Source: a virus (Duplodnaviria; Caudoviricetes). From it: a stretch of DNA of 64,000 bases. A program made the translations under genes and the position numbers. Positions within the stretch are counted from its first letter, which is position 1; every line of letters begins with the position of its first letter. The notes beneath the pieces were generated by a model. It searched no databases, was not told the DNA's origin, and saw nothing but the letters and a program-made list of their open reading frames with translations. Below, piece by piece: positions 32,236-48,931 of this stretch. The stretch lies in the IMG/VR virus record IMGVR_UViG_3300030085_002029, positions 588-64,587 of that record; one strand, 5' to 3'.

Positions 32236-32459
32236 TAATACTTGAGATCAAACTCAACAGCAATAGCCATATTACTGTTAAACCTTTTCCATGGTAATAC
32301 TTCGTTGTCTTTTTTTATGTATATGGAATATTCGCCGCTATCTTCATTGTTTAATATATCACAAATCGTATGTCCACCATAAACTTCTTGACCAACTGAG
32401 TAATGCATTGCATCATTTTTATAATCAGAACCTATACTAATTTTTCTAATGTTAGACAT
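32235..32459 (-). CDS. Hypothetical protein
   Basis: 74 aa, translationally coupled to its neighbours. Confidence 0.6.
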   Translation of the reverse strand: MSNIRKISIGSDYKNDAMHYSVGQEVYGGHTICDILNNEDSGEYSIYIKKDNEVLPWKRFNSNMAIAVEFDLKY

Positions 32460-32694
32460 TCTCTAGTTCTTTTACAGGTTCGTAAGATCCATCGCTTAAG
32501 TCTATATTTACTTTACCATACTCTTTCTCTAACTCCGCCTTAACTTTATTTATGTCTTCATTTAAAGTAGCTATACTGTGTAAAGCGGCGTGTTTCTGAG
32601 CTTCTAACATTCCAATGTCGGATAGTATTCTACTTAATTCTGATTGTTGTTTTGTGATTGTTTCTAAATGTTCTTTTTTAATTTTCTTTTTCAT
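32452..32694 (-). CDS. Small coiled-coil hypothetical protein
   Basis: 80 aa heptad pattern, ends YGKVNIDLSDGSY. Confidence 0.6.
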   Translation of the reverse strand: MKKKIKKEHLETITKQQSELSRILSDIGMLEAQKHAALHSIATLNEDINKVKAELEKEYGKVNIDLSDGSYEPVKELENV

Positions 32695-32721
32695 TTTATT
32701 AAATTTAATTGTTTTTTATTG

Positions 32722-34701
32722 TTAATGATTGTGTATTACCCTAATCATTAATGCATTGTCTGTTCCGTCTGTTGATATAGCGCGTCCTATCTTTACAGTG
32801 CTGCTACCAGGATCTGTTACTAAAGCTGATCTAGTAAGATTGGAAGCACTTAGATTTACTGCTGCGTTTAGTGGAACTGATACAGGTGGTTGATCTCCAC
32901 TGTAAGTTGGGGTTGCTTTCATAATAGACGTCCAACCAGATTCATTAGAGAAAGAGTCAGAAATAAAATTAGCTCTAACTCTTGTGTAAGGAGTTCCTGC
33001 GGGACCAAAAACCGGATCATCAACCGAAGATACAAAGTTAATTACTAGATTGTCATCACCTTGAAACGCTTGAGCCCATTCTTTTAATCTAGGTAATGTA
33101 CAACCACCAGCATTTACATACGACCCATCTTCTGTATCGTCCCAGTCTCCGCCATTAAACATATCGTCATTACTACCTACTCCTGGTAAGTTATTTTCTA
33201 CTTTTAATCCCCATTTCCAGTTAAACTGAAAATACTCCTCTCCATCAAAAGAAACTTCAAAAAATAATCTGTCATAAATTCTAGCGTCAGTACCTTCAAA
33301 TTCCCAAGTTTCACTATCAGAAAAATCTAATGACATAAACCTTTCGTCGTTATCACCGTCTATTGTCCACTCTACAGTGCTTGTCGCGCTGTCGCTATAA
33401 TTAGCAGATCCATCAAAGTACGTTCCATTTTCTACAGTGCTAAGGTTAACAGAGGTAAAGCCGTCTTCCATTGGATGATCAACATCATCTCCAGGTTCAG
33501 TTGGTTCAAGAACAGTTAATCTTCTCGCGGTACAAAGACCTTCTGTTAAAACATTGACAGGATCCCCATCACTGGCGTTATTTAAAGCGATACCAATAAG
33601 TTCAATTTGATTAGGTAAAGCACCAGGGGATATAGCTCTTACTAGATTACTAGAATAACTATATACTACTGGTTGACCATTTAAAATAGTCCCAGCTGCG
33701 GTGTATTTTTCAGCATGACCATATGTAGGTTGGGTTGGGTCTGATAAATCAGCTTTGTTATCTACAACGTTAAAGCCAGTATAATCTACTTCTCCACCGC
33801 TGCCAGCTGTTATATTTATTGTTTCATTTTCTGATGCGTTAGCACCAAATGTACCAGCTTCTTCACCATTTACATTTATTGTTAATATACCATTATTAGC
33901 ACTAACTTTAGCCGTGTTGGCTGTAATCTCTTCTGCTTGCTCAGGTGTTATGCCTACTTTCGCTGTATTAGCTGTAATCTCTGCCGCTTGCTCCGGTGTT
34001 ATACCTGTTTTCGCTGTATTAGCTGTAATCTCTTTTGCTTGCTCTGCAGTAAATACTTCACCACTATATGAAATAACATTGTCATTTATTTCTATAGGTT
34101 CTTCTGCTGTGTATTCAATAGGTTCTGGAATATCTGGAAAAGCTGGTAGCGTTAATGTTCCTGCTTCAAAACTAGCTCCATCCATTTCACTAGAAAGATT
34201 AGTCATTATACTACCTTCAAAATTTTGTAATGCCCCTTCTCCTTCTCTACTAAAAAATAATAACGGCTTATCGTCTTCGTTTTTAAGGCTAATTTTAGCT
34301 AATTGAGCAGTGGTAGTATTTTCTTCAGCACCCATATAAATACTACTATCACTCAAAAATAAATGTCTTACTTTATATTCTGCATTACCTAAATCATAAG
34401 CAGCATTTGCGTTTGGTATAAAATGTCCACCTGAGCTTAATTCCCATCCGTAATCGTTCTCACCACCAACGATAAATTCAATTGTTCCGTCGTCTTTTGC
34501 TTCTATTTTACTTTGAGCTACTCCATCTTCAACAACTGATTGTATTTTAAATATACCGTTCATAAGCTCTTCTCCAGTACACTTTATATTGTAAGCTGCC
34601 TCTCCATCTTGCGCGGCAATATAACCAGCAAAGCCTGCAATGTCACCAAGTGTTTTAGTACCCATGGGCGTTAACCCACTTATTTTTTTATTTTCTGCCA
34701 T
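32722..34701 (-). CDS. Tail fibre/spike protein
   Basis: 659 aa; KKISGL start, IPNANAAYDLG fibre motif, 17-aa repeats, acidic beta-rich C-terminus. Confidence 0.65.
   Translation of the reverse strand: MAENKKISGLTPMGTKTLGDIAGFAGYIAAQDGEAAYNIKCTGEELMNGIFKIQSVVEDGVAQSKIEAKDDGTIEFIVGGENDYGWELSSGGHFIPNANAAYDLGNAEYKVRHLFLSDSSIYMGAEENTTTAQLAKISLKNEDDKPLLFFSREGEGALQNFEGSIMTNLSSEMDGASFEAGTLTLPAFPDIPEPIEYTAEEPIEINDNVISYSGEVFTAEQAKEITANTAKTGITPEQAAEITANTAKVGITPEQAEEITANTAKVSANNGILTINVNGEEAGTFGANASENETINITAGSGGEVDYTGFNVVDNKADLSDPTQPTYGHAEKYTAAGTILNGQPVVYSYSSNLVRAISPGALPNQIELIGIALNNASDGDPVNVLTEGLCTARRLTVLEPTEPGDDVDHPMEDGFTSVNLSTVENGTYFDGSANYSDSATSTVEWTIDGDNDERFMSLDFSDSETWEFEGTDARIYDRLFFEVSFDGEEYFQFNWKWGLKVENNLPGVGSNDDMFNGGDWDDTEDGSYVNAGGCTLPRLKEWAQAFQGDDNLVINFVSSVDDPVFGPAGTPYTRVRANFISDSFSNESGWTSIMKATPTYSGDQPPVSVPLNAAVNLSASNLTRSALVTDPGSSTVKIGRAISTDGTDNALMIRVIHNH
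33906..34046 (-). repeat. Three 51-bp (17-aa) tandem repeats, EQAxEITANTAKxGITP, in the fibre gene
   Basis: CTGTAATCTC recurs at 33921, 33972 and 34023. Confidence 0.85.
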
Positions 34702-34868
34702 TACGATTCGTTTTGTTGTTGTAATAATATTTTTCCATCATTTTCTAATAATAAAATATCTTCTAAAGAGCTTTCTAAAGCCATAAAGCTACTAGGTGCT
34801 GGTGGAGGAGTACTACCACTTGAGCTTAGTTTTGTTTGTGGGATTGTATACCCTATGCCTAACCACAT
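34701..34868 (-). CDS. Small structural-module protein, 55 aa (MWLGIGYTIP...)
   Basis: Fills the gap, coupled to the fibre start codon; not in the ORF track. Confidence 0.55.
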   Translation of the reverse strand: MWLGIGYTIPQTKLSSSGSTPPPAPSSFMALESSLEDILLLENDGKILLQQQNES

Positions 34869-34871
34869 AAT

Positions 34872-35528
34872 TTAAAATAAACCTAATATTTGATCAGCAT
34901 CTGTTTCCACTGTACCATCTACCGCAGCTGCTTCAACCTGCTTAATAGCTTTACTAGCAATATCGATAGCTTCCGTTTTTTGATCAAGTTGTTCTTCAAT
35001 TATTGCTAATTCTTCTAGCAACGCGTCTATTTGATCAGTTACATTTTGCACTTGAATATCAATACTAGCTGCAAGTATGTCATTGCCAGCTTCTATAGCG
35101 TTTTTTAAATCAATTAGTAGGTTTTCCTTTTGCTCTTCTAACTTTTCTATTTCAACTTCTATTTCTGCTTTTCGTGCATCAAGATCTGTGGTTTCTTGTT
35201 CTAAACTGTTTATTAAGTTTGTATAGTAATCTACTCTTTGTGAAAAAACCTCTGCATTTGATTCTAAAACTTTTACAACGAGTATAGGTAAAAACATGCC
35301 TGTACCTATATTTGTAAAAATATTTATATTAGTGTCAAACGTATTACCTGCTGCGTCTACAGCTTCGTGAGTACCTTCCATTTCTACAACTAGTGTTCCA
35401 CCAGTGCCAACGTATAAAGCACAACCTCTTTCTTCAGTTCCAGCTATAGGTGACCCAATATCTACTGGTACAGCGCTATGAGCAAATACTCTCGGTTGAG
35501 CCATGAAATTTCCTTCTATTCCTCTCAT
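34872..35528 (-). CDS. Small virion-type beta protein with a coiled-coil insertion
   Basis: ALYVGTGGTLVV...FLPILVVKV domain followed by a long acidic heptad region. Confidence 0.5.
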   Translation of the reverse strand: MRGIEGNFMAQPRVFAHSAVPVDIGSPIAGTEERGCALYVGTGGTLVVEMEGTHEAVDAAGNTFDTNINIFTNIGTGMFLPILVVKVLESNAEVFSQRVDYYTNLINSLEQETTDLDARKAEIEVEIEKLEEQKENLLIDLKNAIEAGNDILAASIDIQVQNVTDQIDALLEELAIIEEQLDQKTEAIDIASKAIKQVEAAAVDGTVETDADQILGLF

Positions 35529-35531
35529 TTT

Positions 35532-35984
35532 TTAATTTTTAATTTTTGTTATTTTTTCAGCGCCTCTTGAACCAAAGTAGGCTACATAAACTGTAATTAG
35601 TAGAGCTTCTAATAAAGAAACCCAACCTGTTTTTATTTCTAATAATACTGTTGAGTCTAGTATTATAAATATTGTCATAGCTAAAGTAAGAAATATAAGC
35701 GTCATAGGTCTCGTGTTTTTACTTAACCATGAGTCACTTTTCATATCACTCGCCCATCGGTTAGATATGTTATTCATTTCAGCTATATCTTGATCTAAAA
35801 GTTTTAAAGCCATTTCTTTATCTTCGGCCTTAATAGTTCTATCACTTGTTATAATATTTTTTACTACACCAAGGCCTCCTTGATCAGGTAAAAATTCCCC
35901 TAATTTAGAAACAAGTTTAGGAGCTTTCTCGATTAAAAAAGCTCCAACTTTAGTTTCTTTAAATTTTTTCTTTTCTTTTTCCAT
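35532..35984 (-). CDS. Holin (3TM-type-like)
   Basis: RWASDMKSDSWLSKNTRP, two TM helices, YFGSRGAEK. Confidence 0.7.
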   Translation of the reverse strand: MEKEKKKFKETKVGAFLIEKAPKLVSKLGEFLPDQGGLGVVKNIITSDRTIKAEDKEMALKLLDQDIAEMNNISNRWASDMKSDSWLSKNTRPMTLIFLTLAMTIFIILDSTVLLEIKTGWVSLLEALLITVYVAYFGSRGAEKITKIKN

Positions 35985-37474
35985 TATCCTCTATATCCAA
36001 ACAACCTAACTTTTAAAGGAACCATGTTTTTAGTTTTACTATTCTTTTTTAAGTTACCTGAATAGCTAGTATCTTTTTTAAACATCTTACCTATTTGTCT
36101 AAGTTTTGCTTGTCTTTTTTGTTGTCGTACAGGTTTCATACTTTCTCTAAAAGCTTTTCTACTAGCTTTATTATAACTTCTCTGCTGTTTGTTCATTGAC
36201 CTAATATCTTTCCTAGTTGGACTTCCAAACATTCCAGAAGCATAAAGTTGACCAGGCGCGCACTTACCTTCTTTAGTACATTTATTACTAAATTCAGTAG
36301 GTTCTAATTTTCCTGGTGGATTCTTTGAGGGTTTATTAGGAGGTGGTTTTATTTTTTCTTTCTTCTTACCTTTTCTTTTTCTCCATGATTCTTCAGTTAT
36401 ACCACCTGATCTTTCAGTTTGAACTACTAATTTTGGTGTTTGAACTACATTAGCAATAGGTTTAGCTTCAATCCTTTTCATTGGCATTATCACCTCTTTT
36501 TTAGGCTTGTAATATGTAGCATCGTAGTTAGCTACATTACCTTGAGATATGTGACCTTTGTCTGCTAATTCTTGACCTGAAGAACCGGGATAAGTTATAG
36601 ACATTTTTTCCATCCATTCACTAGGAGTACCAGTAAATTGCTTTTGTCCTTTTTTAGCTGTTGGTACTTTTTTTCCATCGTCATCATCTGGTACAGTATT
36701 TCCAGGAGTAGGAAGCTTTTCCTTTGGATCAGCTGGTTTTTTATTTGGTGGAGTTGGCTTTGTACTTGGAGGTGTTTCACCACCTGGTTTTTCAGTCTCT
36801 GAACCAGGTGTTGTAGTAATTTTAGCTTTACCACCAGTAACTATATTTAACATATTTTCTGCAGCTACATGACCATGGAAAGTATTTGGTTGTACTTTTT
36901 TAATAGACCCTCCTTTTTCTCCTGTCTTTGTATTAACATATTTGGTTTTAGTTATTACAGTTCCTTTTTCAGGACCAAATCTTTTAGTTTTTACTTTTTC
37001 TTTTACTTTAACATCTGGATCTTTTTTTTCTTCTCCTCCAGAAACTGTGTAGTTCATAGACGGTCCAATTAAACCTTTATCAGCCATTGCTGCAAATGGC
37101 TTACTGTTACCTCTATGTCCTTTCATTGAAAAACCTTCTTTCATGTCATGTTGTTTATTGTTTAGTATTTTGTCGCTTTCTGCATAAGCTTTTTTCTCCC
37201 ATGGTAAGTTTTTATCAAACTCATCTAAATTTTCTCTAGGATATGTTTTACCTTTATAGTAGAAATTATTTTCATCATAGTCTAAATGAGGATCTAACTG
37301 GTGTACAGTTTCATGAGCTACCACAGCATCTTCAACTTCTTTTGGTAAACCTTCTTGAACTATAATACCAGTATGATTTGATTTACCAACAGCGCCATCT
37401 TGTATATTTTTTCTATATACAGGTATATTCATATCTGACTCTGTGTAAGGTGCTCCGTTTAGTTTAAAACCCAT
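35984..37474 (-). CDS. Zincin metallopeptidase domain fused to a long basic Lys/Pro-rich tail
   Basis: VVAHETVHQ (HExxH) and downstream PWEKKAY Glu in the first ~105 aa. Confidence 0.6.
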   Translation of the reverse strand: MGFKLNGAPYTESDMNIPVYRKNIQDGAVGKSNHTGIIVQEGLPKEVEDAVVAHETVHQLDPHLDYDENNFYYKGKTYPRENLDEFDKNLPWEKKAYAESDKILNNKQHDMKEGFSMKGHRGNSKPFAAMADKGLIGPSMNYTVSGGEEKKDPDVKVKEKVKTKRFGPEKGTVITKTKYVNTKTGEKGGSIKKVQPNTFHGHVAAENMLNIVTGGKAKITTTPGSETEKPGGETPPSTKPTPPNKKPADPKEKLPTPGNTVPDDDDGKKVPTAKKGQKQFTGTPSEWMEKMSITYPGSSGQELADKGHISQGNVANYDATYYKPKKEVIMPMKRIEAKPIANVVQTPKLVVQTERSGGITEESWRKRKGKKKEKIKPPPNKPSKNPPGKLEPTEFSNKCTKEGKCAPGQLYASGMFGSPTRKDIRSMNKQQRSYNKASRKAFRESMKPVRQQKRQAKLRQIGKMFKKDTSYSGNLKKNSKTKNMVPLKVRLFGYRG

Positions 37475-37475
37475 A

Positions 37476-38285
37476 TTACTTATTTCTAGCTTTTATTCTT
37501 TCTGTTCTTTCTCCAGCTGATATAGCTCTTCTTTTAGTTCTTTCTGCTTGTCTTAATGCAATGTTTTTTTCACGAGAAGCTATTCTAGCTTTTTTAACAT
37601 CAGGATCTCCTTTTATCATATCTTTTAAATTACCACCTAAGTTTTTTAAATTAATAGAAGGACCATCTCCATAGACCATTTGTCTCCAATTACCACTTTT
37701 TCTACTAGTCATTCTGTCAGCTCTCTTTTGTGTTACAAATTTTGTTTTAGTTTTATAAGCTGACATAGGTAGCCAAGCGCTAGTTTGATCTTTATATTCT
37801 TTTTTAAGTCTTTGTTTTTGAACTGGCACTTTATTTTCTCTAGCTTGTTGGCGTAATTGTTTTTTAGAGTTTTTAGTTTCAGTAGTTGTGTAGTTCATAC
37901 CAGGACCAAAACCACCTTTAAAGTGAGGTCTAAATTGATCGTTAATTATTCTACCTCTAACAGTAACTTCTTCTCCACTGCCACCTTGATTCTGCATTCC
38001 CATTTGATTAGCCATCATGTTAGCTCTCATAGCTTGTATTTTTCCTAGAAAACCAGGAAAAAGACCACCGCCACCACCGCTGCCACCAGCTGGTGGTTGA
38101 GGATCATTACCGCCGCCAGTAAGAGCATTACCAACAGTACTAGCAACATTACCAACGGTATTGGCCACACCTGATATTGCATCTCCTACTTTGTCAAAAA
38201 AACCAGAAGGTCCATATGCTTTTTCAACCATATTAGCTCCTTTGCTTTTCCATCTATTATTATCGTTTATGTAGTTTTTAGCCAT
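37476..38285 (-). CDS. Basic Gly/Lys/Arg-rich protein with G[AP]xM motifs
   Basis: 269 aa; GANMV, GPGMNYT, GPSIN. Confidence 0.6.
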   Translation of the reverse strand: MAKNYINDNNRWKSKGANMVEKAYGPSGFFDKVGDAISGVANTVGNVASTVGNALTGGGNDPQPPAGGSGGGGGLFPGFLGKIQAMRANMMANQMGMQNQGGSGEEVTVRGRIINDQFRPHFKGGFGPGMNYTTTETKNSKKQLRQQARENKVPVQKQRLKKEYKDQTSAWLPMSAYKTKTKFVTQKRADRMTSRKSGNWRQMVYGDGPSINLKNLGGNLKDMIKGDPDVKKARIASREKNIALRQAERTKRRAISAGERTERIKARNK

Positions 38286-38302
38286 AATTTTATTTATTTG
38301 TC

Positions 38303-38740
38303 TTATCTTTCTGGTTTAAAATTCCTAGTCTCCAAACGTTTTTGGATTTTTTTTCTTTCTTGCTCTTCCTTTTTTTTAGATCTAGTTTTAGATGTAACTT
38401 TTGTATTCATTGCAGCTCCACCTTTACCTTCAGCTGATGCTTTAGATTTATCTACAACAGGGTTTTTGTCAAGTAAGTTTTTAGCGTGTTGCTTGTTACT
38501 CATTGATGCTCCTTCGCTAGGTTTTAGTTGAGGATACTTTGCATATACGCAAGCTTTAATTTTGTTAGATCTTCTACCAGCATTATGAGCTAATTTTAAA
38601 GCTGACTTAGCTCTCTTAAGTGTATTAACTGGATATGTTCCATTAGGTCCACAAAAATCCTCTTTTGCAACATTTGGATATTTACCAGCATTAGACATGC
38701 CTGGTTCTTCTCTTATTTCAGATATTTTCTTCTTTGCCAT
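38303..38740 (-). CDS. Basic Lys-rich protein
   Basis: 145 aa; FCGPNGTYPV, GASMS, GAAMN. Confidence 0.6.
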   Translation of the reverse strand: MAKKKISEIREEPGMSNAGKYPNVAKEDFCGPNGTYPVNTLKRAKSALKLAHNAGRRSNKIKACVYAKYPQLKPSEGASMSNKQHAKNLLDKNPVVDKSKASAEGKGGAAMNTKVTSKTRSKKKEEQERKKIQKRLETRNFKPER

Positions 38741-38744
38741 AACT

Positions 38745-38897
38745 TTATTTTTTATTCATGTTATATGGAAAATTTTTGTTAAACCACTGTTTTCTTTTAT
38801 CACAATTACAACCACCAGGTATAGTGTCTACTAATTTTTTTATACCTGTAGCTGTAGTAAATTTTTCTATACTATCTCCTAAACCTCTTGATTTCAT
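38745..38897 (-). CDS. Small protein, 50 aa (MKSRGLGDSIEKFT...GCNCDKRK)
   Basis: Fills the gap exactly; CxC motif; not in the ORF track. Confidence 0.6.
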   Translation of the reverse strand: MKSRGLGDSIEKFTTATGIKKLVDTIPGGCNCDKRKQWFNKNFPYNMNKK

Positions 38898-38898
38898 T

Positions 38899-39162
38899 TT
38901 ACCATTTTACTTTATTAGCCCAATATGCAGCTGACATTTTTCCTTTAGCTATATTCTTGCCATGTCTAGCTTTGAAACTAGCTCTTCTAGCTTTAGATTT
39001 TTTATCTTGCTTTTTACCAGCTGTAGATACGCCTTGTTGACCAAATCTTATTATTTTTTCTTTACCACCTTCACAAGCTTTTACTATATGAGACTTAGTT
39101 TTATGATTAGGAGTTCTTCTTGGTTTATTACAAGGTAAGTCTTTTTTAGTCAACTTACTCAT
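38899..39162 (-). CDS. Small basic conserved-type phage protein
   Basis: 87 aa; KIIRFGQQG, RRASFKARH, SAAYWANKVKW. Confidence 0.65.
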   Translation of the reverse strand: MSKLTKKDLPCNKPRRTPNHKTKSHIVKACEGGKEKIIRFGQQGVSTAGKKQDKKSKARRASFKARHGKNIAKGKMSAAYWANKVKW

Positions 39163-39313
39163 TACTTTTATTTTTAGGTAGTGATTTTATTTTACCGTTT
39201 TCAGTACGAGCGTATCTATGTGTTTCTGTTTCCATGCTGGGAATTAACGTGCCGCAGTACTTTCCTTTACCATACTTCCAGCATATTTTTTTTCCTTTTT
39301 TCTTACGAGCCAT
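39155..39313 (-). CDS. Small basic protein, 52 aa (MARKKGKKICW...)
   Basis: Coupled to both neighbours; not in the ORF track. Confidence 0.5.
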   Translation of the reverse strand: MARKKKGKKICWKYGKGKYCGTLIPSMETETHRYARTENGKIKSLPKNKSNE

Positions 39314-39588
39314 TACTTATCTTTTTTATTACTTAATTTGCCGTCAACTTCTCTACACCAAAAAAGTATTTCATCTACTTTTTCTTCTAAGTCTTCAATA
39401 TGTTTTGTTTGCCACTCTTGTTTTAAATCATATTCAATACGATCTATTACAGCTGGTGGCATTTTTTTAGCTTCTTCTATGTCAGCTTGTAAAGTATAAT
39501 ACATTCCTACAAACATAGAGGTTATAACTATTAAGCTTATGACAGTTTTAAGATCTATCTTAAATTCAGTTCCCTCAGAGATTTTCAT
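39313..39588 (-). CDS. Single-TM coiled-coil protein, possibly a lysis accessory
   Basis: Likely start MKISEG; TM segment VISLIVITSMFVGMYY; follows the amidase. Confidence 0.5.
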   Translation of the reverse strand: MKISEGTEFKIDLKTVISLIVITSMFVGMYYTLQADIEEAKKMPPAVIDRIEYDLKQEWQTKHIEDLEEKVDEILFWCREVDGKLSNKKDK

Positions 39589-39988
39589 ATTCATGTGTAG
39601 CATCAAATGATGGACACGCTTTGTTAGCAAAGTCCTTGTGTGAATGTATTACAGCATTTGGGTACATAGCTTTTAAAGTTCTAAGTACACATAACAATGC
39701 TTCTTTTTGACAGTCTAGTCTAGTATCTTTGGGAGTCTTACCATCTGCTTCAACGCCTCCACAATAACATATCCCTATCGAATTTCGATTGTGCCCTTTA
39801 CAATGAGCTCCCATTTTAGCTATATCTCTACCTTTGTGTATATTACCATATAGGTCGATATAGAAGTGATAGCCAATATCGCTCCAGCCACGTCCTTCAA
39901 CGTGCCATCTACGTATTTCAGCTACATCAAAGTTTTCTCCTTCTCTAGTTGCAGAGCAATGAACTATAATCTTATTTATTTCTCTCAT
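39575..39988 (-). CDS. N-acetylmuramoyl-L-alanine amidase (T7 lysozyme-like endolysin)
   Basis: IIVHCSAT, GWSDIGYHF, GAHCKGHN, SIGICY, KACPSF. Confidence 0.93.
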   Translation of the reverse strand: MREINKIIVHCSATREGENFDVAEIRRWHVEGRGWSDIGYHFYIDLYGNIHKGRDIAKMGAHCKGHNRNSIGICYCGGVEADGKTPKDTRLDCQKEALLCVLRTLKAMYPNAVIHSHKDFANKACPSFDATHEYENL

Positions 39989-40500
39989 GTTTTTTCATAA
40001 TTAAAAAGTTCTGGGCTTTGCTTAAACAACGCTTTCATAGCTTTACTATCTTTCTTACTTTGTTTATCGTGATATTTAACTTTTTCTTTATTTCTGCGTA
40101 AACCGAAATTCTTTATTTGTCTATCACTTTCAAATAATAAATTACCATCACTATCTATTACATCAGCATGCTCCGTAAATATATCTTTATTACCTAAAAT
40201 TTTTTGAGCTAAAGGAATTTTTCTAGGAGTACTTGACTCTTTTGAACTAATAGTGCTAATTTCTCCAGTATTAACATTTGTTTGTTTGCTGTTAAAATTA
40301 GAGCTTTGACTAAAAGTAGATTTATTTTTATTACCAAAAAGCTTTTGTGCTAAACGGTTTTTTCTAGGAGTACTTTTGTCACTTTGATTTGTTTTAATAG
40401 TTGAGTTTGCCTCTATTTTATATTTAGACGGATCTACTCCTCTTGATTTTTTAAGTTTAGCTTCAGCACTTTTTAGGTCTAGTTTAGATTTTGTATTCAT
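39985..40500 (-). CDS. Basic Lys/Ser-rich protein with an internal repeat
   Basis: 171 aa; STPRKNRLAQKLFGNK and STPRKIPLAQKILGNK. Confidence 0.55.
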   Translation of the reverse strand: MNTKSKLDLKSAEAKLKKSRGVDPSKYKIEANSTIKTNQSDKSTPRKNRLAQKLFGNKNKSTFSQSSNFNSKQTNVNTGEISTISSKESSTPRKIPLAQKILGNKDIFTEHADVIDSDGNLLFESDRQIKNFGLRRNKEKVKYHDKQSKKDSKAMKALFKQSPELFNYEKT

Positions 40501-40856
40501 TGTTTGTAGCCTTTTAAGTTTGCACCTTTTTTAACATAGTCGGGAGCATGGTTGTAGTTTACCGTAATTTCTTCTCCTGCTTTAATATCCTTTAATGCAT
40601 AAACATTTAACATATTGTTTTCACTTACGTTCATAGCGTTGGGATCTTTTTGGTGGTTTAAAGATTTACCAAGTATAGTTCTTGTATCTATCATAGGCAT
40701 GTTAACTACTTTAGACTCGTCTTCAAAAGCAGTGTCTATAAATTCTCCTTTTTTAAAATCCCTATCTGCTATTACACCTAAACCATCTACCATACCTTCA
40801 TTAATTATGCTGTATGGCTTGTTGTTAAACTTAGGTCGTTTAAGTTTGAAACTCAT
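40497..40856 (-). CDS. SET-domain protein-lysine methyltransferase
   Basis: GLGVIADRDFKKGEFI, LNHQKDPN, ALKDIKAGEEITVNY match the three SET signature motifs. Confidence 0.85.
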   Translation of the reverse strand: MSFKLKRPKFNNKPYSIINEGMVDGLGVIADRDFKKGEFIDTAFEDESKVVNMPMIDTRTILGKSLNHQKDPNAMNVSENNMLNVYALKDIKAGEEITVNYNHAPDYVKKGANLKGYKQ

Positions 40857-41011
40857 TACGCTTTAAAAGCTAATAAAAATTCTCTTAAACCCATTCCAAA
40901 AGCAACCCCAGCATATAGCATATGTGAGTGCATTAGTAATAATAATCCTATACCTATACAAGCAACAGCTTTAGACAAAGGGTGATTTATAATTTCCTTA
41001 ACAGTTTCCAT
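40856..41011 (-). CDS. Small membrane protein, 51 aa
   Basis: METVKEIINHPLSKAVACIGIGLLLL...; hydrophobic; coupled to the SET start. Confidence 0.5.
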   Translation of the reverse strand: METVKEIINHPLSKAVACIGIGLLLLMHSHMLYAGVAFGMGLREFLLAFKA

Positions 41012-41012
41012 A

Positions 41013-41171
41013 TTATTTATTTTTTTTCATCATCCACCACTTGTGTGCAGTGTAGCCGATGGTTACAAGTAATAATGTAATTTTTAATACAGGCTCTAAC
41101 CAGTCAAAACTAGCTATAGTAAACGAAGTTATGTTTAAGCAATATAACTTCAAATCGTCTAAACCGATCAT
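41013..41171 (-). CDS. Small membrane protein, 52 aa, holin-like
   Basis: MIGLDDLKLYCLNITSF...LKITLLLVTIGYTAHKWW. Confidence 0.55.
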   Translation of the reverse strand: MIGLDDLKLYCLNITSFTIASFDWLEPVLKITLLLVTIGYTAHKWWMMKKNK

Positions 41172-41341
41172 TTCTGAGCGTTTAATACAGCGTTACCTTT
41201 GTAAGCGCAGTTTGTATTAATAACCAAACCTGGTTTAATAGTTGTGTCTCTTGACGTCATAACTTTAACACCTGAAGACATTTTCTTCATTGGTGATTTA
41301 TCTACTCCTGCTGGAGCTTGGAATCTTCCTATACTTGGCAT
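41168..41341 (-). CDS. Hypothetical protein, 57 aa
   Basis: MPSIGRFQAPAG...YKGNAVLNAQK; fills the gap. Confidence 0.5.
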   Translation of the reverse strand: MPSIGRFQAPAGVDKSPMKKMSSGVKVMTSRDTTIKPGLVINTNCAYKGNAVLNAQK

Positions 41342-41360
41342 AATTTTTTTTTTTAATGTT

Positions 41361-42509
41361 TTATTGATATGATCCTAAACTTTTTATAGTAGAATCTTGT
41401 TTTGCTGTATATGCAGATATTTTAGTAGGCACAACAGAGCTTGGTGAAATAGGTTGAGGTGAAGAACTTCTAGATGTATCTGGTTTTAATAGTTGTTTTG
41501 TTTTATCAGCAAGTTCTTTCATTCTTACAGCGTTTCTAAAATCAAACTGAAAGTTACCAATAGATATTGGTAGTTGTCTTTGCATTAATCCTTCCATTAC
41601 TGCTTTTTTATCTCCTTGTCTTTTGTCTATATAAGAACTATCTTGTGAAGCCATTTTAGGTACCATTGATGCTCCACCGTAGGCGTAACCGCCTCCGCCA
41701 TATCCACCCATACCACCACCTGGATTATAAGCTACTTGAGCGTCTTCTGCTTCGTCATCTTTTTTAGAAGTTAGTCTACTAGCTAAATTAGCTGCAGCTG
41801 AGTTAGTTGCTGATTCTATAGCAGTTTTACCTAGAGGTGAAGATGCTGCACTTTTAGCTCTGTTAGTAAATCTATCAACAGCGGCTTTAGGATTTGCTTT
41901 AAAGTTTTGAAACTTTTGATCTAATATACCTCCTGCCATTTTAGCTTTACTACCTATATTTTGAAACATTTTACCAAAGTCAATACCTTTTGATGGACCC
42001 ATTGCAGTACCACCAGTAGCATATCCACCACTACTATGATTTACCGGAGATACACCATGTGGAACAGCATCTGGTCCTGGAATTTCTTCATCTTTTTTAC
42101 TAGTAGCTCTACTTGCTAAATTACCAGCCGCGCTACTTGTTGCACTAGACATAGCTGCTTTAGCCGCTTTTGATTTAGCTGCTTTAGCTGCCGCAACTCC
42201 AACTTTGGATGCTGCTGCTTTTTTAGCTACAGCTGCTGCTTTTATACCTAGTTTCTTTAATATTATAGCTGCGGTAATTGGCTCTGATGCTCCACTTTTT
42301 GAGTCATAAGTATCTACCATGTTTGGAGCTGCATCAGCTCTATCATCAGTTGGATTATATTCTAAGTCTGCAGCTGCTTCTCCCATATATGGACCTGTAT
42401 TATCATACATATTTGGACCTTTATTGCTTTTATACATAGAACCACCATCTCTTCTCTGGTGCATAGCAACACCGTGCATAGGAGTATTTTTAGGTTGATT
42501 ATAAGCCAT
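41361..42509 (-). CDS. Ala/Gly/Lys-rich protein with many GxxM motifs and an internal duplication
   Basis: Likely start MAYNQ at 42509; GVAM, GGSM, GPNM, GPYM, GTAM, GASM; the SATxSAAxNLASRxTSKKD block occurs twice. Confidence 0.6.
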   Translation of the reverse strand: MAYNQPKNTPMHGVAMHQRRDGGSMYKSNKGPNMYDNTGPYMGEAAADLEYNPTDDRADAAPNMVDTYDSKSGASEPITAAIILKKLGIKAAAVAKKAAASKVGVAAAKAAKSKAAKAAMSSATSSAAGNLASRATSKKDEEIPGPDAVPHGVSPVNHSSGGYATGGTAMGPSKGIDFGKMFQNIGSKAKMAGGILDQKFQNFKANPKAAVDRFTNRAKSAASSPLGKTAIESATNSAAANLASRLTSKKDDEAEDAQVAYNPGGGMGGYGGGGYAYGGASMVPKMASQDSSYIDKRQGDKKAVMEGLMQRQLPISIGNFQFDFRNAVRMKELADKTKQLLKPDTSRSSSPQPISPSSVVPTKISAYTAKQDSTIKSLGSYQ

Positions 42510-42945
42510 TGTTTCTTGTTTTATCTTTATTAACATTCAGTATAGATGTATTTAAAACTTTATAAATATATCTATCATTTTTTTCAAATATCTTATTAGG
42601 CATATCTTCTTCACCTAACATAATTCGATACATTCTACTTATTAACTGTTTGCACTTTGTGGATACTTTATATATATGATATTTTTGGGTTGTGCGGTTT
42701 CTTTTTCTCCACACGGTAATCCACCCTTGCTTCAATAATCTGTTCCAGCGCCTGTTGTCCCAGCTATAAGAGTAAGTACCTTTTTTAAAATCATCTTTTG
42801 TAAACAAATCAATTGCTTCAAGATAGATTAAAAGCTCAAGGTCTGCTTCTTTAATATCACAGGTTTTGCACGCCCATTTACGTATAATCCTGTAATGTTT
42901 CAGTAAATTCAATTGTTTCAAGTCAGACGAGCTAATTCTTCGCAT
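42499..42945 (-). CDS. Winged-helix-like DNA-binding protein
   Basis: 148 aa; DLELLIYL...LLKQGWITV...IYKVS..CKQL MarR-like pattern. Confidence 0.45.
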   Translation of the reverse strand: MRRISSSDLKQLNLLKHYRIIRKWACKTCDIKEADLELLIYLEAIDLFTKDDFKKGTYSYSWDNRRWNRLLKQGWITVWRKRNRTTQKYHIYKVSTKCKQLISRMYRIMLGEEDMPNKIFEKNDRYIYKVLNTSILNVNKDKTRNNGL

Positions 42946-42947
42946 GT

Positions 42948-43208
42948 TTATAAGATAATAACTACGTCGTTTTCTTTTATTATTTTCCAGCTTTTTTTAT
43001 CTATTTCAATATTAAAGCCTGCGTTTTTATCGTAGTATATAGTATCGCCTTTTTTAATTGCTTCTACTGCTCCTCCGACTACTAGCACTTCTGCTTGTCT
43101 GTATCTAACATCTTCTCTTTGTGATTCAGCTAGAATTAAACCACCTTTTGTTTTAGTATTAACTTCTTTTAAAGGTTTTATTGCTATATATTTACCAACT
43201 GCTTTCAT
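42948..43208 (-). CDS. groES: Co-chaperonin GroES
   Basis: KTKGGLIL mobile loop, VLVVG, IKKGDTIYY; adjacent to groEL. Confidence 0.88.
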   Translation of the reverse strand: MKAVGKYIAIKPLKEVNTKTKGGLILAESQREDVRYRQAEVLVVGGAVEAIKKGDTIYYDKNAGFNIEIDKKSWKIIKENDVVIIL

Positions 43209-44752
43209 GCTCTTATATTATTAATTACACAATCAGTTGATAATATGGTTGTGGCTACTGAAGCCGCGTTTAACAATGCGCTTTTAGTAACCAGCAAAGG
43301 ATCTATTATTCCGGCTTTAACCATATTAACCATATTTCCTGTAACCACATCTAGTCCTATACCTTCTTCTTCGCATTTATTTTGTTGTGATATACCTGCA
43401 TTTTGTAAAATTAAATTGTATGGTTGTCTTATAGCTTGGTATAAAACTTCTTCACCTATACAATCTGCTGTTAAATGTTGAGCGGCATTTAGTAAAGCTA
43501 TACCACCTCCTGGTAGTATACCTTCTTTAATCGCGGCTTTTGTAGCACATATAGCATCTTCAACCCTATCTCTTTTTTCTTTTAACTCTATTTCGGAACT
43601 TGCACCCACTTTTACTATAGCTACTTTTGCTTTAAGTTTTGCAAGTCTTTTTTCTAAACTTATAATTTTATTTGGGTTTTTTGTTTTTTTAAGTTTAGCT
43701 TCTAAGAACTCAATAGTATGTTTTACTTCTTCGTTGTCTGACAAGTCAACTTGTAGTATTGTGTCTTCCTGGTTAGTTATACTTCTTTTGCATGAACCTA
43801 AGTGTTCTATAGATATTAAGTCCATGTCGTCGCCTAAGTCTTCATTTATTAAAGTAGCACCTGTTACATCACAAAGATCTGACAATGTGTCTTTTCTACT
43901 AACACCAAATGTAGGCGCGTTAATAATATTAACTTTTATATTACCTTTAATTTTATTCATTGCTAATGCAGAAAGTACTTGAGATTCAACTTCTGCAATT
44001 ATAAGTAGACTTTTGTTGTTTTTTATAACATACTCTAATACGTTTTGTATTTTTCTTATATTAGGTATTTTAGATTCTACTATAAGAACTAAAGGGTTTG
44101 TTAACTCACATACTCCTTTATCTTTGTCTGTTATAAAATGATTGCTAGTTAAAGCTTGATCATATTGAACTCCTTCTACTAGTTCTACTATAGTGTTAGG
44201 ATACTCATTAGTTTCCATCATTACTATACCAGTTTCATCTACTAACTTAAATGCTTTTCCTATTACATCTCCTAACGACTTATCATTATTTGATGATATA
44301 GTTGCTACTTGATTTATTTTATTACCTGATACTTTTTTAGTTTTCTTACTTAAGTATTTTATAACTTTATCTACTCCTGAATTAATACCTTCTATTAAAG
44401 ATCTTGTATCATCTAATAAATCATGTTCTCCTGCTTCTTTTAATATAGCTTTAGCAAGAACTGTAGCGGTTGTAGTTCCGTCTCCTGCATCTCTAACTGT
44501 TCTTTGCGCTGCCTCTTTAATTAGTGTAGCGCCAATATTTTCTAGTGGATCTTGTAATGTTATTGAATTAGCAACGGTAACACCATCTTTAGTTATTATT
44601 GGTTTACCATGTTGATCTTCTAATATTACGCACTTACCACTTGCTCCTAGTGTAGAGCTAACCGCGTTAGTCAGTTTGTCTACTCCAGCTAAAATCTTTC
44701 CTCTAGCATCGTCACCAAAGGAAAGACTTTTAACTAATTTTATATCTTCCAT
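43205..44752 (-). CDS. groEL: Chaperonin GroEL
   Basis: [34 protein letters not shown]; lacks the GGM tail. Confidence 0.95.
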
Positions 44753-44777
44753 TATATTTAATTAAATTTAATTGTGT

Positions 44778-45062
44778 TTACTCGAATGTTTTAACTACTT
44801 TTGGTCCTTTTAAAAATTCCAACTTTTTACTGTAATGTTCAATAGATCCATCAATAGCAGCTTCAGCACCGTCCATTGTTTCTCTTCTTGTTACATCTAT
44901 CCAGTCTTCACTTTCAGGGTGTAAGTATTCAGTTTGAAAAAATCCATTTGGTAACTGTACAATCCTCCAGTTCTTTTTTTCGGTTATGTGTTTCCAATGG
45001 TCGATCATTCTTTGATCTGGTTGTATAGCAGCTTTAAAGCCGCTGGTATATAAAAACGTCAT
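44778..45062 (-). CDS. Hypothetical protein
   Basis: 94 aa; NWRIVQLPNGFFQTE, WIDVTRRET. Confidence 0.6.
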   Translation of the reverse strand: MTFLYTSGFKAAIQPDQRMIDHWKHITEKKNWRIVQLPNGFFQTEYLHPESEDWIDVTRRETMDGAEAAIDGSIEHYSKKLEFLKGPKVVKTFE

Positions 45063-45091
45063 GGTTTATGTTTTTAGGTTTATATATAAGT

Positions 45092-45115
45092 ATTCCCCCG
45101 CTTTCGCGGGAGAAT
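45092..45115. terminator. GC-rich hairpin, possible terminator
   Basis: ATTCCCCCGC-TTTC-GCGGGAGAAT in an intergenic gap. Confidence 0.5.
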
Positions 45116-45122
45116 TATTTTT

Positions 45123-46091
45123 TTATTCTTCCACAGGTGGTTCTTCTGCTTCAGCTGGTGCAAATGGTGAGGATGATGGGTCTGCTTCCCACGCGTCAAT
45201 AGTTGCTTTAGCTTCTACTCCGTCAACAGATGCTTTTAAAGCTTCTGATGCTGCTGACTCTGCAGTGCTAGCCGTTTCTGTTGCCTCAACTGCTGCTTCA
45301 TTTGCTTTAGCAGCTGTTGTACTTGCGTCTGTTGCTGCACTTGTTGCCTCAGCTGCTGCTGCTGTAGCAGTTTCTGCTGATGATTGTGCCTCATCAGCTT
45401 TACCATCGGCTGTTTCTGCCAACGCGGCTGCTGCATCCGCTGCTGCTTGGGCTTCGTTTGCTTTACCGTCAGCTGTTGCCGCCGCATTTGCTGCATTTTC
45501 TGCTGCAATTTCCGCGTCAGCTGCTGCTGCTGAAGCTTTTTCAGCGTTACTATTAGCGACTTCTGCATCGGCTGCTGCATTGTCAGCGGTATCTTTTACA
45601 GTTTCTATTTCTTTAGTATTAGCATCAGCGTCTTCTTTCACCGACTCTATCTCTTTAGTGTTAGCATCAACCTCTTTTTCAATTTCATCAATGTCGCCAG
45701 TGTTGGTTTCTACGTCTTCTTTAAGACTTTCAACTTCTTTTTCTAATTCTGACAAATCTCCAATAGGTGAAGCTTCTAGTTTAGCAATTCTTGCTTCAAA
45801 ATCTGCGTTAATTATCGCTTGAGCTGCTGCAAACTCGTTAAATGCAGCGCAACAAGCTTCTAGACTTGCTACTTGTTCTTGTAAAACACTAACAATACTT
45901 GTTAACGATGCTATGTTTTCTGTATTTACCGCTACAAGTTTTTCTAAAAGGTCTAATGCTTCTTTAATATCGGCTAATAAGTTACCAACCGATATTTGTT
46001 TGGTCATTTTTTTCTCTTCTGAGTCTGATATTATGATTAAATCAGAATCAGCGGCCTTACCTTTGGTTGGATATGTATATATTATTGCCAT
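45123..46091 (-). CDS. Fibre-like coiled-coil protein with Ala-rich repeats
   Basis: MAIIYTYP...DLIIISD fibre-type N-terminus, 14-aa ANTKEIE repeats, Ala-rich heptads. Confidence 0.6.
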   Translation of the reverse strand: MAIIYTYPTKGKAADSDLIIISDSEEKKMTKQISVGNLLADIKEALDLLEKLVAVNTENIASLTSIVSVLQEQVASLEACCAAFNEFAAAQAIINADFEARIAKLEASPIGDLSELEKEVESLKEDVETNTGDIDEIEKEVDANTKEIESVKEDADANTKEIETVKDTADNAAADAEVANSNAEKASAAAADAEIAAENAANAAATADGKANEAQAAADAAAALAETADGKADEAQSSAETATAAAAEATSAATDASTTAAKANEAAVEATETASTAESAASEALKASVDGVEAKATIDAWEADPSSSPFAPAEAEEPPVEE

Positions 46092-46095
46092 TTTT

Positions 46096-46806
46096 TTATA
46101 CTTTTAATTTTTTCTCTTGTTCTTTTCTGTATTTATCTCTTGCTGCAGCGTCAGATTTTGGATTTTCTTTAATATATTTTCTAACTAAGCTATTTACAGC
46201 TCTTTCTCTTTTTTTGGTTGACTTTTCTGTAGCTTTATTTTCTTTCTTTTTTATAAAAGCTTTTTTGTCATCTACTTTTTGTCTTTTCTTTCTAGCTTTT
46301 TTTCGTATTTTTTCTACTCTAGTGCTGTTTGGTTTCTTAGCTTCCTTAATATCTGCTTTAGTTTCTAATTTAGTAGCCCTAGTAGACTTTTTAGCTAAAC
46401 GTTTTACACTCATATTGGCACCTTCTCCTTTAATACCTACTGTTTTGTATATACTATACTCACCATATCCATCTAGAGTATCTTTTTCATGCTGAACTTG
46501 GTAATCTAAGTCTTGTGGTAAACCTTCTGGACCATATTTTAAATGCTTGCCTCTTATTAAATCGCCTTCCCTAGGTCCATTCTGCATATTATGAGCCATA
46601 TGTCCGCTTTCAGTTATATACTGGCCTGGTATAGAATGTATTGGCTTTATTGGCTTTGCTGGCATATTAGGCTTTTTAACTGCTGTATTGTCTGCTACAG
46701 CAGGTTTTACCTCCATCGATGCTCCATGCCTTTTACTCTTGGCGCTTCCTGGCGGAATACCACCCATGCTATGTCCGCCTTTTCTATTAAACTTTTTTAA
46801 ACTCAT
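46096..46806 (-). CDS. Highly basic Lys/Arg-rich protein
   Basis: 236 aa; GHSM, GASM, GANM; very basic C-terminal half. Confidence 0.6.
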   Translation of the reverse strand: MSLKKFNRKGGHSMGGIPPGSAKSKRHGASMEVKPAVADNTAVKKPNMPAKPIKPIHSIPGQYITESGHMAHNMQNGPREGDLIRGKHLKYGPEGLPQDLDYQVQHEKDTLDGYGEYSIYKTVGIKGEGANMSVKRLAKKSTRATKLETKADIKEAKKPNSTRVEKIRKKARKKRQKVDDKKAFIKKKENKATEKSTKKRERAVNSLVRKYIKENPKSDAAARDKYRKEQEKKLKV

Positions 46807-47195
46807 TAGCTAAAGTGTTTACTGTAGTGATTATGTCTTAATACTGGATGCTTTGAATGATAAGCAGCTTCGTCATTTTCTAGATAATGAAGTCTAGCAC
46901 TAGCTGTTAGATCTTTATTATGTGCCATTTTAGCATCGTATGCTTCTGCAGACATGCTTGAACCATTGTCAAAAGAAACCGTTGCTACACTTCCAGCATC
47001 TCCAAAAGCTCCCTCTGGTAAAGCTGGATTATCAGATTGAGATCTGGTAACATTCGCTTTAGCGAAATTATCAGCTATCGCCGTGTTCCACTCATCTGTG
47101 GCACCGTGCTGGTTTTTTCTTTTATGTTTGTTGGCTCTGCAGTCTTCTTTTCTTTTTCCACGCTTTAACCAACAATGTCTACTATTTTTTCCCAT
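46806..47195 (-). CDS. Basic hypothetical protein, first gene of the late arm
   Basis: 129 aa; GSSMS; LTASARLHYLEN. Confidence 0.55.
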   Translation of the reverse strand: MGKNSRHCWLKRGKRKEDCRANKHKRKNQHGATDEWNTAIADNFAKANVTRSQSDNPALPEGAFGDAGSVATVSFDNGSSMSAEAYDAKMAHNKDLTASARLHYLENDEAAYHSKHPVLRHNHYSKHFS

Positions 47196-47279
47196 GGTAA
47201 TATTTTAAATATTTACTAATTTCTTTTTATGTACATATTATAGTATTTACAGGTAAAACGTAAAATTTACAAGGTACAC

Positions 47280-47325
47280 TGTGACATAAGGTACTTACTA
47301 GTATACTTAACTACCTAATGTCACA
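47280..47325. promoter_or_regulatory. Inverted-repeat site, copy 1
   Basis: TGTGACATAAGGTA-N18-TACCTAATGTCACA; 14-bp arms with 1 mismatch. Confidence 0.65.
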
Positions 47326-47554
47326 TATATATTTTAGCCCGGTATCAGATATATAGAAGTAAAGTACTGCCCTACCAAAATTTTATTTTGAATTTTTTTA
47401 CAAAATCATTTTTTAAAACTGGGGCTCCCCTACATTTTAATATTTAATTGCATATTCCCCGTAATAATCGAAACGATATTGCGATCATGCGATCGATGCA
47501 TCACGAAATAAATTCTATTCTAACTAAAAACATTTAGCATTTTTATAATTATGC

Positions 47555-47585
47555 ACAAGGCTTTTACGACTACGTATAGATAATA
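47555..47585 (+). promoter_or_regulatory. Phage promoter-like motif, copy 1
   Basis: ACAA-N6-TACG-N9-AGATAATA. Confidence 0.7.
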
Positions 47586-47712
47586 TATATGAATTTAAAA
47601 ATAAACAAAATGTATAAATTAAAATTAATAACTTTCAATATCGCTTTAACTCTCTTTATAATTAACGTAATTAACTTTGTATATCAACTATTAAATATAA
47701 TAATATAATTGC

Positions 47713-47743
47713 ACAAATTAAATACGACTACTTAAAGATAATA
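47713..47743 (+). promoter_or_regulatory. Phage promoter-like motif, copy 2
   Basis: ACAAATTAAATACGACTACTTAAAGATAATA. Confidence 0.75.
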
Positions 47744-47785
47744 TAAACAACTAAACTAAATTAATAATAAATAAATATAATAACT

Positions 47786-48025
47786 ATGAAAACTAATAAT
47801 TTAACTACTAAAAGATTTGTAATAAGAAAATCATTAATTGGCGAAAACGCTATCATTACATTCACTAACAAAAAAGGTATTACTTATACTTATGATCATG
47901 ACGAAATATACTCACTATTTCAAGAAAAGTTTGAAAGTATGAATTGCTTTCAAGAGTATAAAAGTTATACTAACTCAAATGTTGTACCAAAATTCTGTAG
48001 AGAATTAGCTACAATTAGTGAGTAG
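47786..48025 (+). CDS. Early hypothetical protein
   Basis: 79 aa downstream of motif copy 2. Confidence 0.6.
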   Translation: MKTNNLTTKRFVIRKSLIGENAIITFTNKKGITYTYDHDEIYSLFQEKFESMNCFQEYKSYTNSNVVPKFCRELATISE

Positions 48026-48030
48026 TAACA

Positions 48031-48077
48031 TGTGACAGTAGCCTGTTACTCTATATAACTAATAGGCTATTGTCATA
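48031..48077. promoter_or_regulatory. Inverted-repeat site, copy 2
   Basis: TGTGACAGTAGCCT-N19-AGGCTATTGTCATA. Confidence 0.65.
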
Positions 48078-48254
48078 CAACACTTGAATAATAATATATT
48101 CAATATCTATGTAAGATAATGAGAACTCATGTGTTACCACCTACAACAAAAAATAATATATAAACTAATTAACACCTTTAATATGCTAATATTTTTCACA
48201 ATACCACCTGTAATAATATCACTATTTATTCTTTATGATTTCATTAGTGATTAC

Positions 48255-48285
48255 ACAAACTAAATACGTTCACTCGTAGATAATA
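48255..48285 (+). promoter_or_regulatory. Phage promoter-like motif, copy 3
   Basis: ACAAACTAAATACGTTCACTCGTAGATAATA. Confidence 0.75.
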
Positions 48286-48384
48286 TAATAAAACATGTAG
48301 TTGATCGCCATACTTTAGCATGTATAAATAATACGAACACTTGGCGCCACCAAACTAATTTATTAACTTTTAAAACTAACGCTT

Positions 48385-48582
48385 ATGCCTTATAACCCAA
48401 ATAATCCAAGTAATTGGTCATGGTCAAAAGCTTTTGACGAAATGGCTAAAACAGTACATCAAGCTGAAATGACTCAGCAAGTAATTAATCATCTTGGTGG
48501 TTACACAGGTGAAACTAAATATGTAGATTTACCTAAAACTAAACAAGACGAATTGTATCACGTTTTATACCAAATACTATAA
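48385..48582 (+). CDS. Early hypothetical protein
   Basis: 65 aa ORF. Confidence 0.55.
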   Translation: MPYNPNNPSNWSWSKAFDEMAKTVHQAEMTQQVINHLGGYTGETKYVDLPKTKQDELYHVLYQIL

Positions 48583-48584
48583 CT

Positions 48585-48797: not shown

Positions 48798-48892
48798 ATA
48801 AATATAATAACAAGAAAGACGAAGAAAGTGCTAACAAAGTTTTAGCAGTAATTATAATACTATTTTTTATAACAGTAATAATTGACTACGTC

Positions 48893-48923: not shown

Positions 48924-48931
48924 ATAATAAT

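Follow-up and report, generated by a model that had tools for sequence, protein, structure and literature searches.

The DNA analysed here (the window) is a stretch of 64,000 nucleotides (nt), nearly the whole of IMG/VR record IMGVR_UViG_3300030085_002029 (64,587 bases, completeness rating 100%), from an uncultured marine virus of the Caudoviricetes with a G+C content of about 33%. On its minus strand, a lysine-rich block that follows the GroEL and GroES genes and also holds an amidase and a holin gene includes an open reading frame (ORF) of 119 amino acids (aa) that encodes a SET-domain protein (Table 1). An initial annotation, made from the sequence alone, had described this ORF as a minimal lysine methyltransferase and had coupled it to the lysine-rich 171-aa protein encoded directly downstream. 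The SET assignment stands; the pairing as enzyme and specific partner is not supported. The analysis also brought out a short N-terminal sequence, here called the head, that precedes the SET core and is shared with basic proteins encoded around it.

The SET domain

The three motifs named in the initial annotation (G25-L-G27, N67-H68-x3-P72-N73 and G94-EEITVN-Y101) all lie where they were claimed, N67-H68-QKD-P72-N73 being the NH motif, and post-SET cysteines are indeed lacking, the protein having no cysteine at all. The Pfam SET hidden Markov model matches with an E-value of 1.4e-13 (51.5 bits against a cut-off of 22.4) over positions 1-105 of its 105; in the genome search the PF00856 score was 42.9 bits, and Methanosarcina acetivorans gave a match as a control. 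The best sequence match in the PDB is vSET of the chlorovirus PBCV-1 (119 aa, E 2.2e-6), in which G-Y-G aligns with G25-L-G27 and EEITISY with E95-E96-I-T-V-N-Y101. An AlphaFold2 model built from 10 sequences has a mean predicted local distance difference test score (pLDDT) of 67, with values below 50 at residues 1-10, 53-58 and 113-119. It predicts a SET fold: Foldseek placed vSET first (E 1.4e-6) among 219 matches at E ≤ 0.001, all of those shown being SET-domain proteins, and VIA-align returned 195 chains at Z ≥ 8, led by EZH2 (Z 11.5), with vSET at Z 10.6 and a root mean square deviation of 2.7 over 89 residues (28% identity). The likeness to vSET that had been proposed is thus seen both in sequence and in fold.

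Searching 5.8 billion proteins by a word-based method yielded 10 relatives. Among 1.84 billion representatives searched with a profile, 2,638 matched at E ≤ 0.001 and only two at E ≤ 1e-30. The alignment of the close family comprises 23 sequences from protein searches, IMG/VR and metagenome contigs; their identity to the window protein is 47-92%. Mean column identity across them is 58%; M1, K4, G25, G27, N67, H68, Y86, E96, Y101 and P105 are invariant in all 23, and F3 is nearly so. The 119-aa ORF encodes a genuine SET-domain protein with a minimal, vSET-like core. It is probably an active protein-lysine methyltransferase, since every S-adenosylmethionine (SAM)-binding and catalytic position is conserved across these 23 divergent sequences.

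A head shared with neighbouring proteins

Residues 1-13 of the SET protein lie outside the fold: the Pfam match begins at residue 25, the vSET alignment at residue 17, and the model is disordered there. In the relatives this head reads MAFKMKG.. or MGYKMKGFSGF.., with the consensus M-A-[FY]-K-[ML]-K-G. Is it peculiar to the SET proteins? In 13 metagenome loci (L085-L097) the ORFs around the SET gene open alike, for example MAFKMKGFGGFGNSPAKQ, MAYKMKGWSGYQSSPAKQ, MATPFKMKGHTLPG and MKKSGFKMKGYSYPGTSP. The pattern [FY]K[LM][KR][GS] occurs within the first 34 residues of 34 of the 94 ORFs of these loci (13 SETs and 21 neighbours); in 500 composition-preserving shuffles of the same ORFs the mean count was 0.03 and the highest was 1. 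The motif sits at residues 5-17 in some of the lysine-rich neighbours. Every member of the close SET family bears the same head as the basic proteins that surround it. Because the head codons vary synonymously (Gly is GGA 11, GGT 9, GGC 6 and GGG 6 times) and the upstream DNA differs, it is at the protein level that the head is conserved.

Across all six frames, the window has just two instances of a relaxed form of the motif, each at residue 3: one in the SET protein (MSFKLKR), the other in a 496-aa protein with an HExxH motif (MGFKLNG). The head is disordered in the models of both proteins. The head-like start of the 391-aa protein upstream of SET is comparable to MAYKQPKGTPMHG in locus L005. 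Two distant SET representatives (P0021 and P0016, E about 1e-17 to 1e-18) also open in a head-like manner, with ..KFKMKGFSYPG.. and MKGFTYPG.., so that the combination of head and SET reaches beyond the close family.

Two other features of the head-bearing proteins were seen in passing. A Gly/Ala-rich hydrophobic helix follows the head at L090:985-1254, L094:3090-3356, L093:1096-1542, L097:5737-5991 and positions 41361-42536 of the window; such helices are common in membrane-inserting proteins. The tetrapeptide DGAS, read from the printed sequences, recurs at least nine times across six lysine-rich proteins of L005 (1612-8024), where it may mark a site of processing or be a linear motif.

The 496-aa protein of the window opens with a domain of about 110 residues that has invariant H54, E55 and H58 (H54-E55-x2-H58) and, further on, E85, W92 and E93. 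Elsewhere among phages the domain stands alone as a protein of 100-127 aa that has the same head and, in L006 and L087, is encoded directly upstream of SET. Lysine 4 of the head is invariant in 16 of 16 HExxH proteins. The model (pLDDT 75) has weak fold matches (E 0.05-0.4) to minimal zinc peptidases such as selecase and abylysin (minigluzincins) and to Wss1. Two of three mini HExxH proteins match unnamed PHROG families weakly. A possible SET-HExxH fusion, the 263-aa representative P0013 with an HExxH motif after its SET domain, was dropped as a link between the two families, the profile comparison (E 0.19 over 14 columns) not being significant.

Distribution of the head and of SET genes

The exact MAFKMKG coding pattern is found in at least 139 stretches in IMG/VR. 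The 80 IMG/VR loci analysed contain 88 distinct head ORFs; in 87 of them the start is the first ATG that follows a stop codon. Their tails are highly diverse. Of the 85 that have at least 45 aa, 81 contain 10% lysine or more, and 75 of 79 scanned belong to no Pfam family (the others being three DUF6321 matches and one weak match). A PHROG search with 20 lysine-rich proteins, either head-bearing or neighbouring, assigned no usable family, 19 being without a match and one having a weak match of 13 residues. The pattern gave 74 single matches in 596 gigabases of bacterial and archaeal genomes, with at most one N-terminal lysine-rich ORF; most fall inside one unrelated enzyme or in tiny frames. 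The head is phage-specific and near chance level in cellular genomes.

A tblastn search of 50,697 phage records, in which the low-complexity filter may hide matches, found none for the 26-aa head, the head with the HExxH protein, the 496-aa and 171-aa proteins or the SET protein; this SET is rare in cultured phages. No paper in the collection searched contains the head word FKMKG in its full text.

In 27 of 29 head-bearing viral records of at least 30 kb the terminase is 71-78% identical to that of the window, so the head marks the phage lineage to which the window belongs. SET is missing from 27 of the 29, among them all eight that are at least 90% complete, and three complete genomes without SET have two to four head ORFs each. 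The initial annotation had raised sporadic presence unlinked to the basic proteins as a point that would speak against its proposal. The presence of SET is sporadic (2 of 29 head-bearing records, with a SET of another, headless type); unlinked it is not, all SETs of the window's family sharing the head.

SET genes as such are not rare in uncultured phages, relatives of the window SET being encoded on 363 IMG/VR stretches. We counted architectures in the best 80 ORFs from these: 42 are stand-alone proteins of at most 140 aa, 28 are C-terminal fusions (141-330 aa, SET match starting after residue 150) and three have the SET domain at the N-terminus of proteins of 568-909 aa. Among these 80 the head is found only in the family of the window (L004-L006). 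The nearest ESM Atlas clusters are SET proteins of 107-120 aa labelled viral, and Atlas SET clusters with 60-96 mostly viral members exist. In two phages of the window's lineage, the two head-bearing records that have a SET (L377:1465-1818 and L378:1465-1818, minus strand), the gene directly after GroES encodes a second, headless type of 117 aa, which shares 32% identity with the window SET over 82 residues. In the papers searched, phage SET domains appear only at the level of annotation, with no function on record: the relevant part of one report lists a 'SET domain protein (ORF62)' in phage Ps15 (PMC9025141). The phrase 'SET domain' also came up for a crassvirus atlas paper, where it refers to immunoglobulin 'C2-set domains' and is irrelevant.

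Gene neighbourhood

The features around the SET gene are collected in Table 1.

Table 1. Features of the SET locus and of the head-bearing HExxH family (window coordinates unless a locus is named)
Feature	Position	Strand	Remarks
SET gene, 119 aa	40497..40856	-	core about residues 14-119; G25xG27, N67-H68, E95-E96, Y101
N-terminal head, SET codons 1-13, MSFKLKRPKFNNK	40818..40856	-	outside SET fold
171-aa Lys-rich protein with two STPRK..LAQK..GNK blocks	39985..40500	-	start overlaps SET stop (ATGA)
Two copies of 60-nt direct repeat	40175-40234 and 40316-40375	.	encode doubled block of 171-aa protein
N-acetylmuramoyl-L-alanine amidase (endolysin)	39575..39988	-	Pfam Amidase_2 E 7e-13; phrog_822 E 4e-55
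Three small ORFs upstream of SET (51, 52, 57 aa)	40856..41341	-	first two hydrophobic
391-aa Gly/Ala/Lys-rich protein	41361..42536	-	internal Met start MAYNQPKNTPMHG, degenerate head-like
496-aa protein: head MGFKLNGAPY, mini HExxH domain of about 110 aa, Lys-rich tail	35984..37474	-	
Four Lys-rich ORFs (269, 145, 87, 52 aa)	37476..39313	-	87-aa ORF is phrog_7595
Holin-like protein	35532..35984	-	phrog_3427
148-aa protein (phrog_17028), GroES, GroEL	42499..44752	-	upstream; apparently same transcription unit as SET
Terminator-like hairpin, strongest of the region	45092..45115	-	10 pairs, 6 G-C; upstream of GroEL-to-SET unit
Head-bearing mini HExxH family	37100-37474 (window); L006:2616-2999; L087:290-667; L097:11011-11376	- (window)	window copy fused to Lys-rich tail

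The SET gene lies in a long minus-strand block that runs from about 47,200 to 2,100. This opens with two lysine-rich ORFs and an acidic ORF, followed by the hairpin; then come GroEL, GroES, the phrog_17028 protein and the lysine-rich block with SET, amidase and holin; terminase, portal, virion proteins and an ORF of 3,432 aa end it. SET is on the strand of GroEL/GroES, amidase, holin, terminase and portal and contiguous with them. Its junctions are tight: TAATG with the 51-aa ORF and ATGA with the 171-aa gene, which in turn joins the amidase gene by ATGA. L004 keeps all of the 51-, 52- and 57-aa ORFs; L005, L085 and L086 keep two or three each. The lysine fractions of the neighbours are 0.16 (496 aa), 0.11 (269 aa), 0.19 (145 aa), 0.23 (87 aa), 0.23 (52 aa) and 0.10 (391 aa).

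A scan for sigma-70 promoters showed no enrichment (72 sites against 65.4 ± 8.3), with a consensus that may not suit Bacteroidota. Contigs of RNA library X18 fall on the amidase and 391-aa genes and not on SET; because this library may contain DNA, they say nothing about expression. DNA contigs of three runs (X4, X5 and X6) cover SET without differences. At position 41343, where a spacer separates the 57-aa gene from the 391-aa gene, one X4 DNA contig has a 2-base insertion (TT) that the other runs lack.

Further observations concern genes of the block other than SET. The 87-aa lysine-rich gene (38899-39162, minus strand) is the only part of 38000-43000 with similarity to other phages at the DNA level (69-78%, to Roseobacter phages CRP-9 and CRP-5 and Synechococcus phage S-EIVl). 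The phage-encoded GroEL and GroES genes occupy 42948-44752 (minus strand), and at 31639-32235 (minus strand) lies the gene of another protein, of 198 aa, with a match to a PHROG family labelled GroES. No PHROG family matches the 3,432-aa ORF (3220-13518, minus strand). Three complete genomes of the lineage encode relatives 2,545-3,789 aa long and 41-44% identical to it, and the Elemovirus counterpart is annotated as a structural protein.

What is the host of this phage? The large terminase of the window matches 87 cultured or assembled phage records, the closest being MW202828.1 (uncultured, freshwater, 63%), followed by Flavobacterium Elemovirus phages (45%) and phages of Cellulophaga, Tenacibaculum and Maribacter (31-38%). 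Because these terminase relatives are phages of Flavobacteriia, the host is most likely a marine member of that class. To judge from the names of its cultured relatives, the phage resembles podoviruses.

The 171-aa neighbour

The 171-aa protein has the features given in the initial annotation: its gene overlaps the SET stop codon, lysine makes up 18% of its residues, and the STPRK..LAQK..GNK block occurs twice. At the DNA level the doubled block is a direct repeat whose 60-nt copies are 83% identical and spaced 141 nt apart. The proposal that this protein is the specific partner of SET fared less well. Its family amounts to five clusters in 5.8 billion proteins, and its one IMG/VR locus besides the window is L004, a near-identical contig (SET 99% identical) and the only other place where the gene adjoins SET. 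In L005, L006 and the 13 metagenome loci it does not adjoin SET; the gene directly after SET is an amidase gene in L005 (SET 62% identical) and L085, a holin-like gene in L006, and other small lysine-rich genes in L088-L097. Nor are the blocks the best conserved part of the protein, which is its C-terminal half; the relative P0163 lacks the first block.

Possible roles of the head and of the SET protein

We infer that the head is an address label and not part of the enzyme: in most phages it works without SET, and it is a disordered segment at the very N-terminus of otherwise unrelated proteins, two of them with enzyme-like domains. The SET protein would therefore share the destination of the head-tagged basic proteins. 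Our tentative preference, on which we are close to evenly divided, is for SET as an accessory lysine methyltransferase that has joined the head-tagged protein set and is delivered wherever the head proteins go. The disordered 13-residue head in front of the vSET-like core (residues about 14-119) is the local version of a phage-specific tag, which also opens a changeable set of small lysine-rich proteins and the mini HExxH metallopeptidase-like protein of the same block. The analogy with T4 internal proteins and with vSET, which is packaged in the virion, would make the inside of the capsid, and from there the next cell infected, the most likely destination. The lysines that SET methylates there may belong to a host protein or to basic proteins delivered with it. 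The initial annotation had already proposed that the phage methylates either its own histone-like basic proteins or, once injected, a protein of the host, and either may be the case.

Several observations weigh against this preferred reading. The head of the window SET is itself degenerate (FKLKR instead of FKMKG), and the model of the protein is of moderate confidence. The headless SET in the same lineage means that the head is not needed for every SET. The SET block lies among lysis genes, upstream of the terminase, and not among known internal-virion genes; no prohead protease family was found among the 26 large ORFs of the window in a PHROG scan, and there is no evident cleavage site after the head. 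Moreover, no cultured phage was found to carry the head, which is missing from the first 50 kb of a cultured Elemovirus isolate; nor was it found in positions 30000-50000 of MW202828.1 (from the terminase to past GroEL), where the lysine-rich block is absent too.

A more specific version, which we regard as doubtful, is that in this one lineage of marine Flavobacteriia phages the MAFKMKG head is a virion loading signal for interchangeable cargo (lysine-rich DNA-binding proteins, the mini metallopeptidase and sometimes SET) and that SET is injected with the DNA and methylates proteins of the host, or proteins injected along with it, at the start of infection. If so, the system would be a bacterial-virus counterpart of the packaged vSET, the tag would be a second natural capsid-targeting system after that of T4, in abundant uncultured marine phages, and protein lysine methylation might be a tool of phage takeover or counter-defence in bacteria.

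What else could the SET protein and the head be doing? SET might stay unpackaged and act in the cytoplasm, methylating a nucleoid, ribosomal or transcription protein of the host, with the head serving only expression or stability. This would suit a gene in one unit with GroEL/GroES and the lysis genes and not with virion genes, and agrees with the control match of PF00856 to Methanosarcina acetivorans; SET enzymes that act on targets in the cell are known in archaea and bacteria. We think it unlikely, as it leaves unexplained an 18-residue motif, conserved at the protein level, that is common to unrelated lysine-rich proteins and lies at residues 5-17 in some of them. Another view is that the head is the substrate: SET would methylate the invariant FK[ML]K lysine on its neighbours, its own head being an auto- or pseudo-substrate. 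Lysine 4 is indeed invariant in all 23 SETs and all 16 HExxH proteins, SET lies inside arrays of head-bearing proteins, and in the models the head is an exposed, disordered N-terminal tail. But because 27 of the 29 head-bearing records, including all eight of at least 90% completeness, have no SET, the head must work without methylation; a substrate motif would not require the extreme N-terminus, yet this is where the head is placed in 87 of 88 ORFs. We therefore consider this view rather improbable.

The narrower idea of a dedicated pair, in which the two STPRK..LAQK..GNK blocks of the translationally coupled 171-aa protein would be the sites that SET methylates, draws on the ATGA overlap, on the duplication of a lysine-bearing block and on the conservation of the arrangement in L004. 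It is unsupported, because L004 is the only locus besides the window where the 171-aa gene adjoins SET; with the small size of the family, the missing first block of P0163 and the better conservation of the C-terminal half also against it, we judge it quite improbable. An inactive, SET-like binding module would fit the very short SET-I insert and the moderate confidence of the model. This is very improbable indeed, all SAM-binding and catalytic positions being invariant across the 23 sequences at a mean column identity of just 58%. The tag that the SET protein has in common with a phage-only lysine-rich family offers an experimental handle on a phage SET enzyme.

Comparison with known systems

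Cellular SET enzymes of prokaryotes offer one precedent. That of archaeal Methanosarcina reportedly acts on the chromatin protein MC1, and bacterial SET effectors act on host histones. Such enzymes have basic DNA-binding proteins outside canonical eukaryotic chromatin as their substrates; unlike the window SET, they are encoded by cellular genes, are larger and lack the head.

The head itself has a parallel in phage T4. The passages of PMC3012670 that deal with T4 internal proteins describe these as diverse, with only a capsid targeting sequence in common, one that can load foreign proteins too. In both cases varied small basic proteins share just a short N-terminal sequence, and in the window set one head opens lysine-rich proteins, the SET protein and the HExxH protein. 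The T4 targeting sequence and the head have no sequence similarity.

The closest relative in kind is vSET (A612L of PBCV-1; PDB 1n3j and 3kma). Like the window SET it is a virus-encoded protein of 119 aa that consists of a bare SET core without pre-SET or post-SET cysteine clusters, and in the pertinent section of PMC7019647 it is described as packaged in the PBCV-1 virion. The two are only about 24-28% identical, however, and vSET lacks the FK[ML]K head. It methylates Lys27 of histone H3 of a eukaryotic host, whereas the relatives of the window phage infect Flavobacteriia, which have no nucleosomes; for this reason a histone target is unlikely for the window SET. The window protein is a further member of the minimal viral SET kind, and what is new in it is the head, which links a SET domain to a set of proteins found only in phages.

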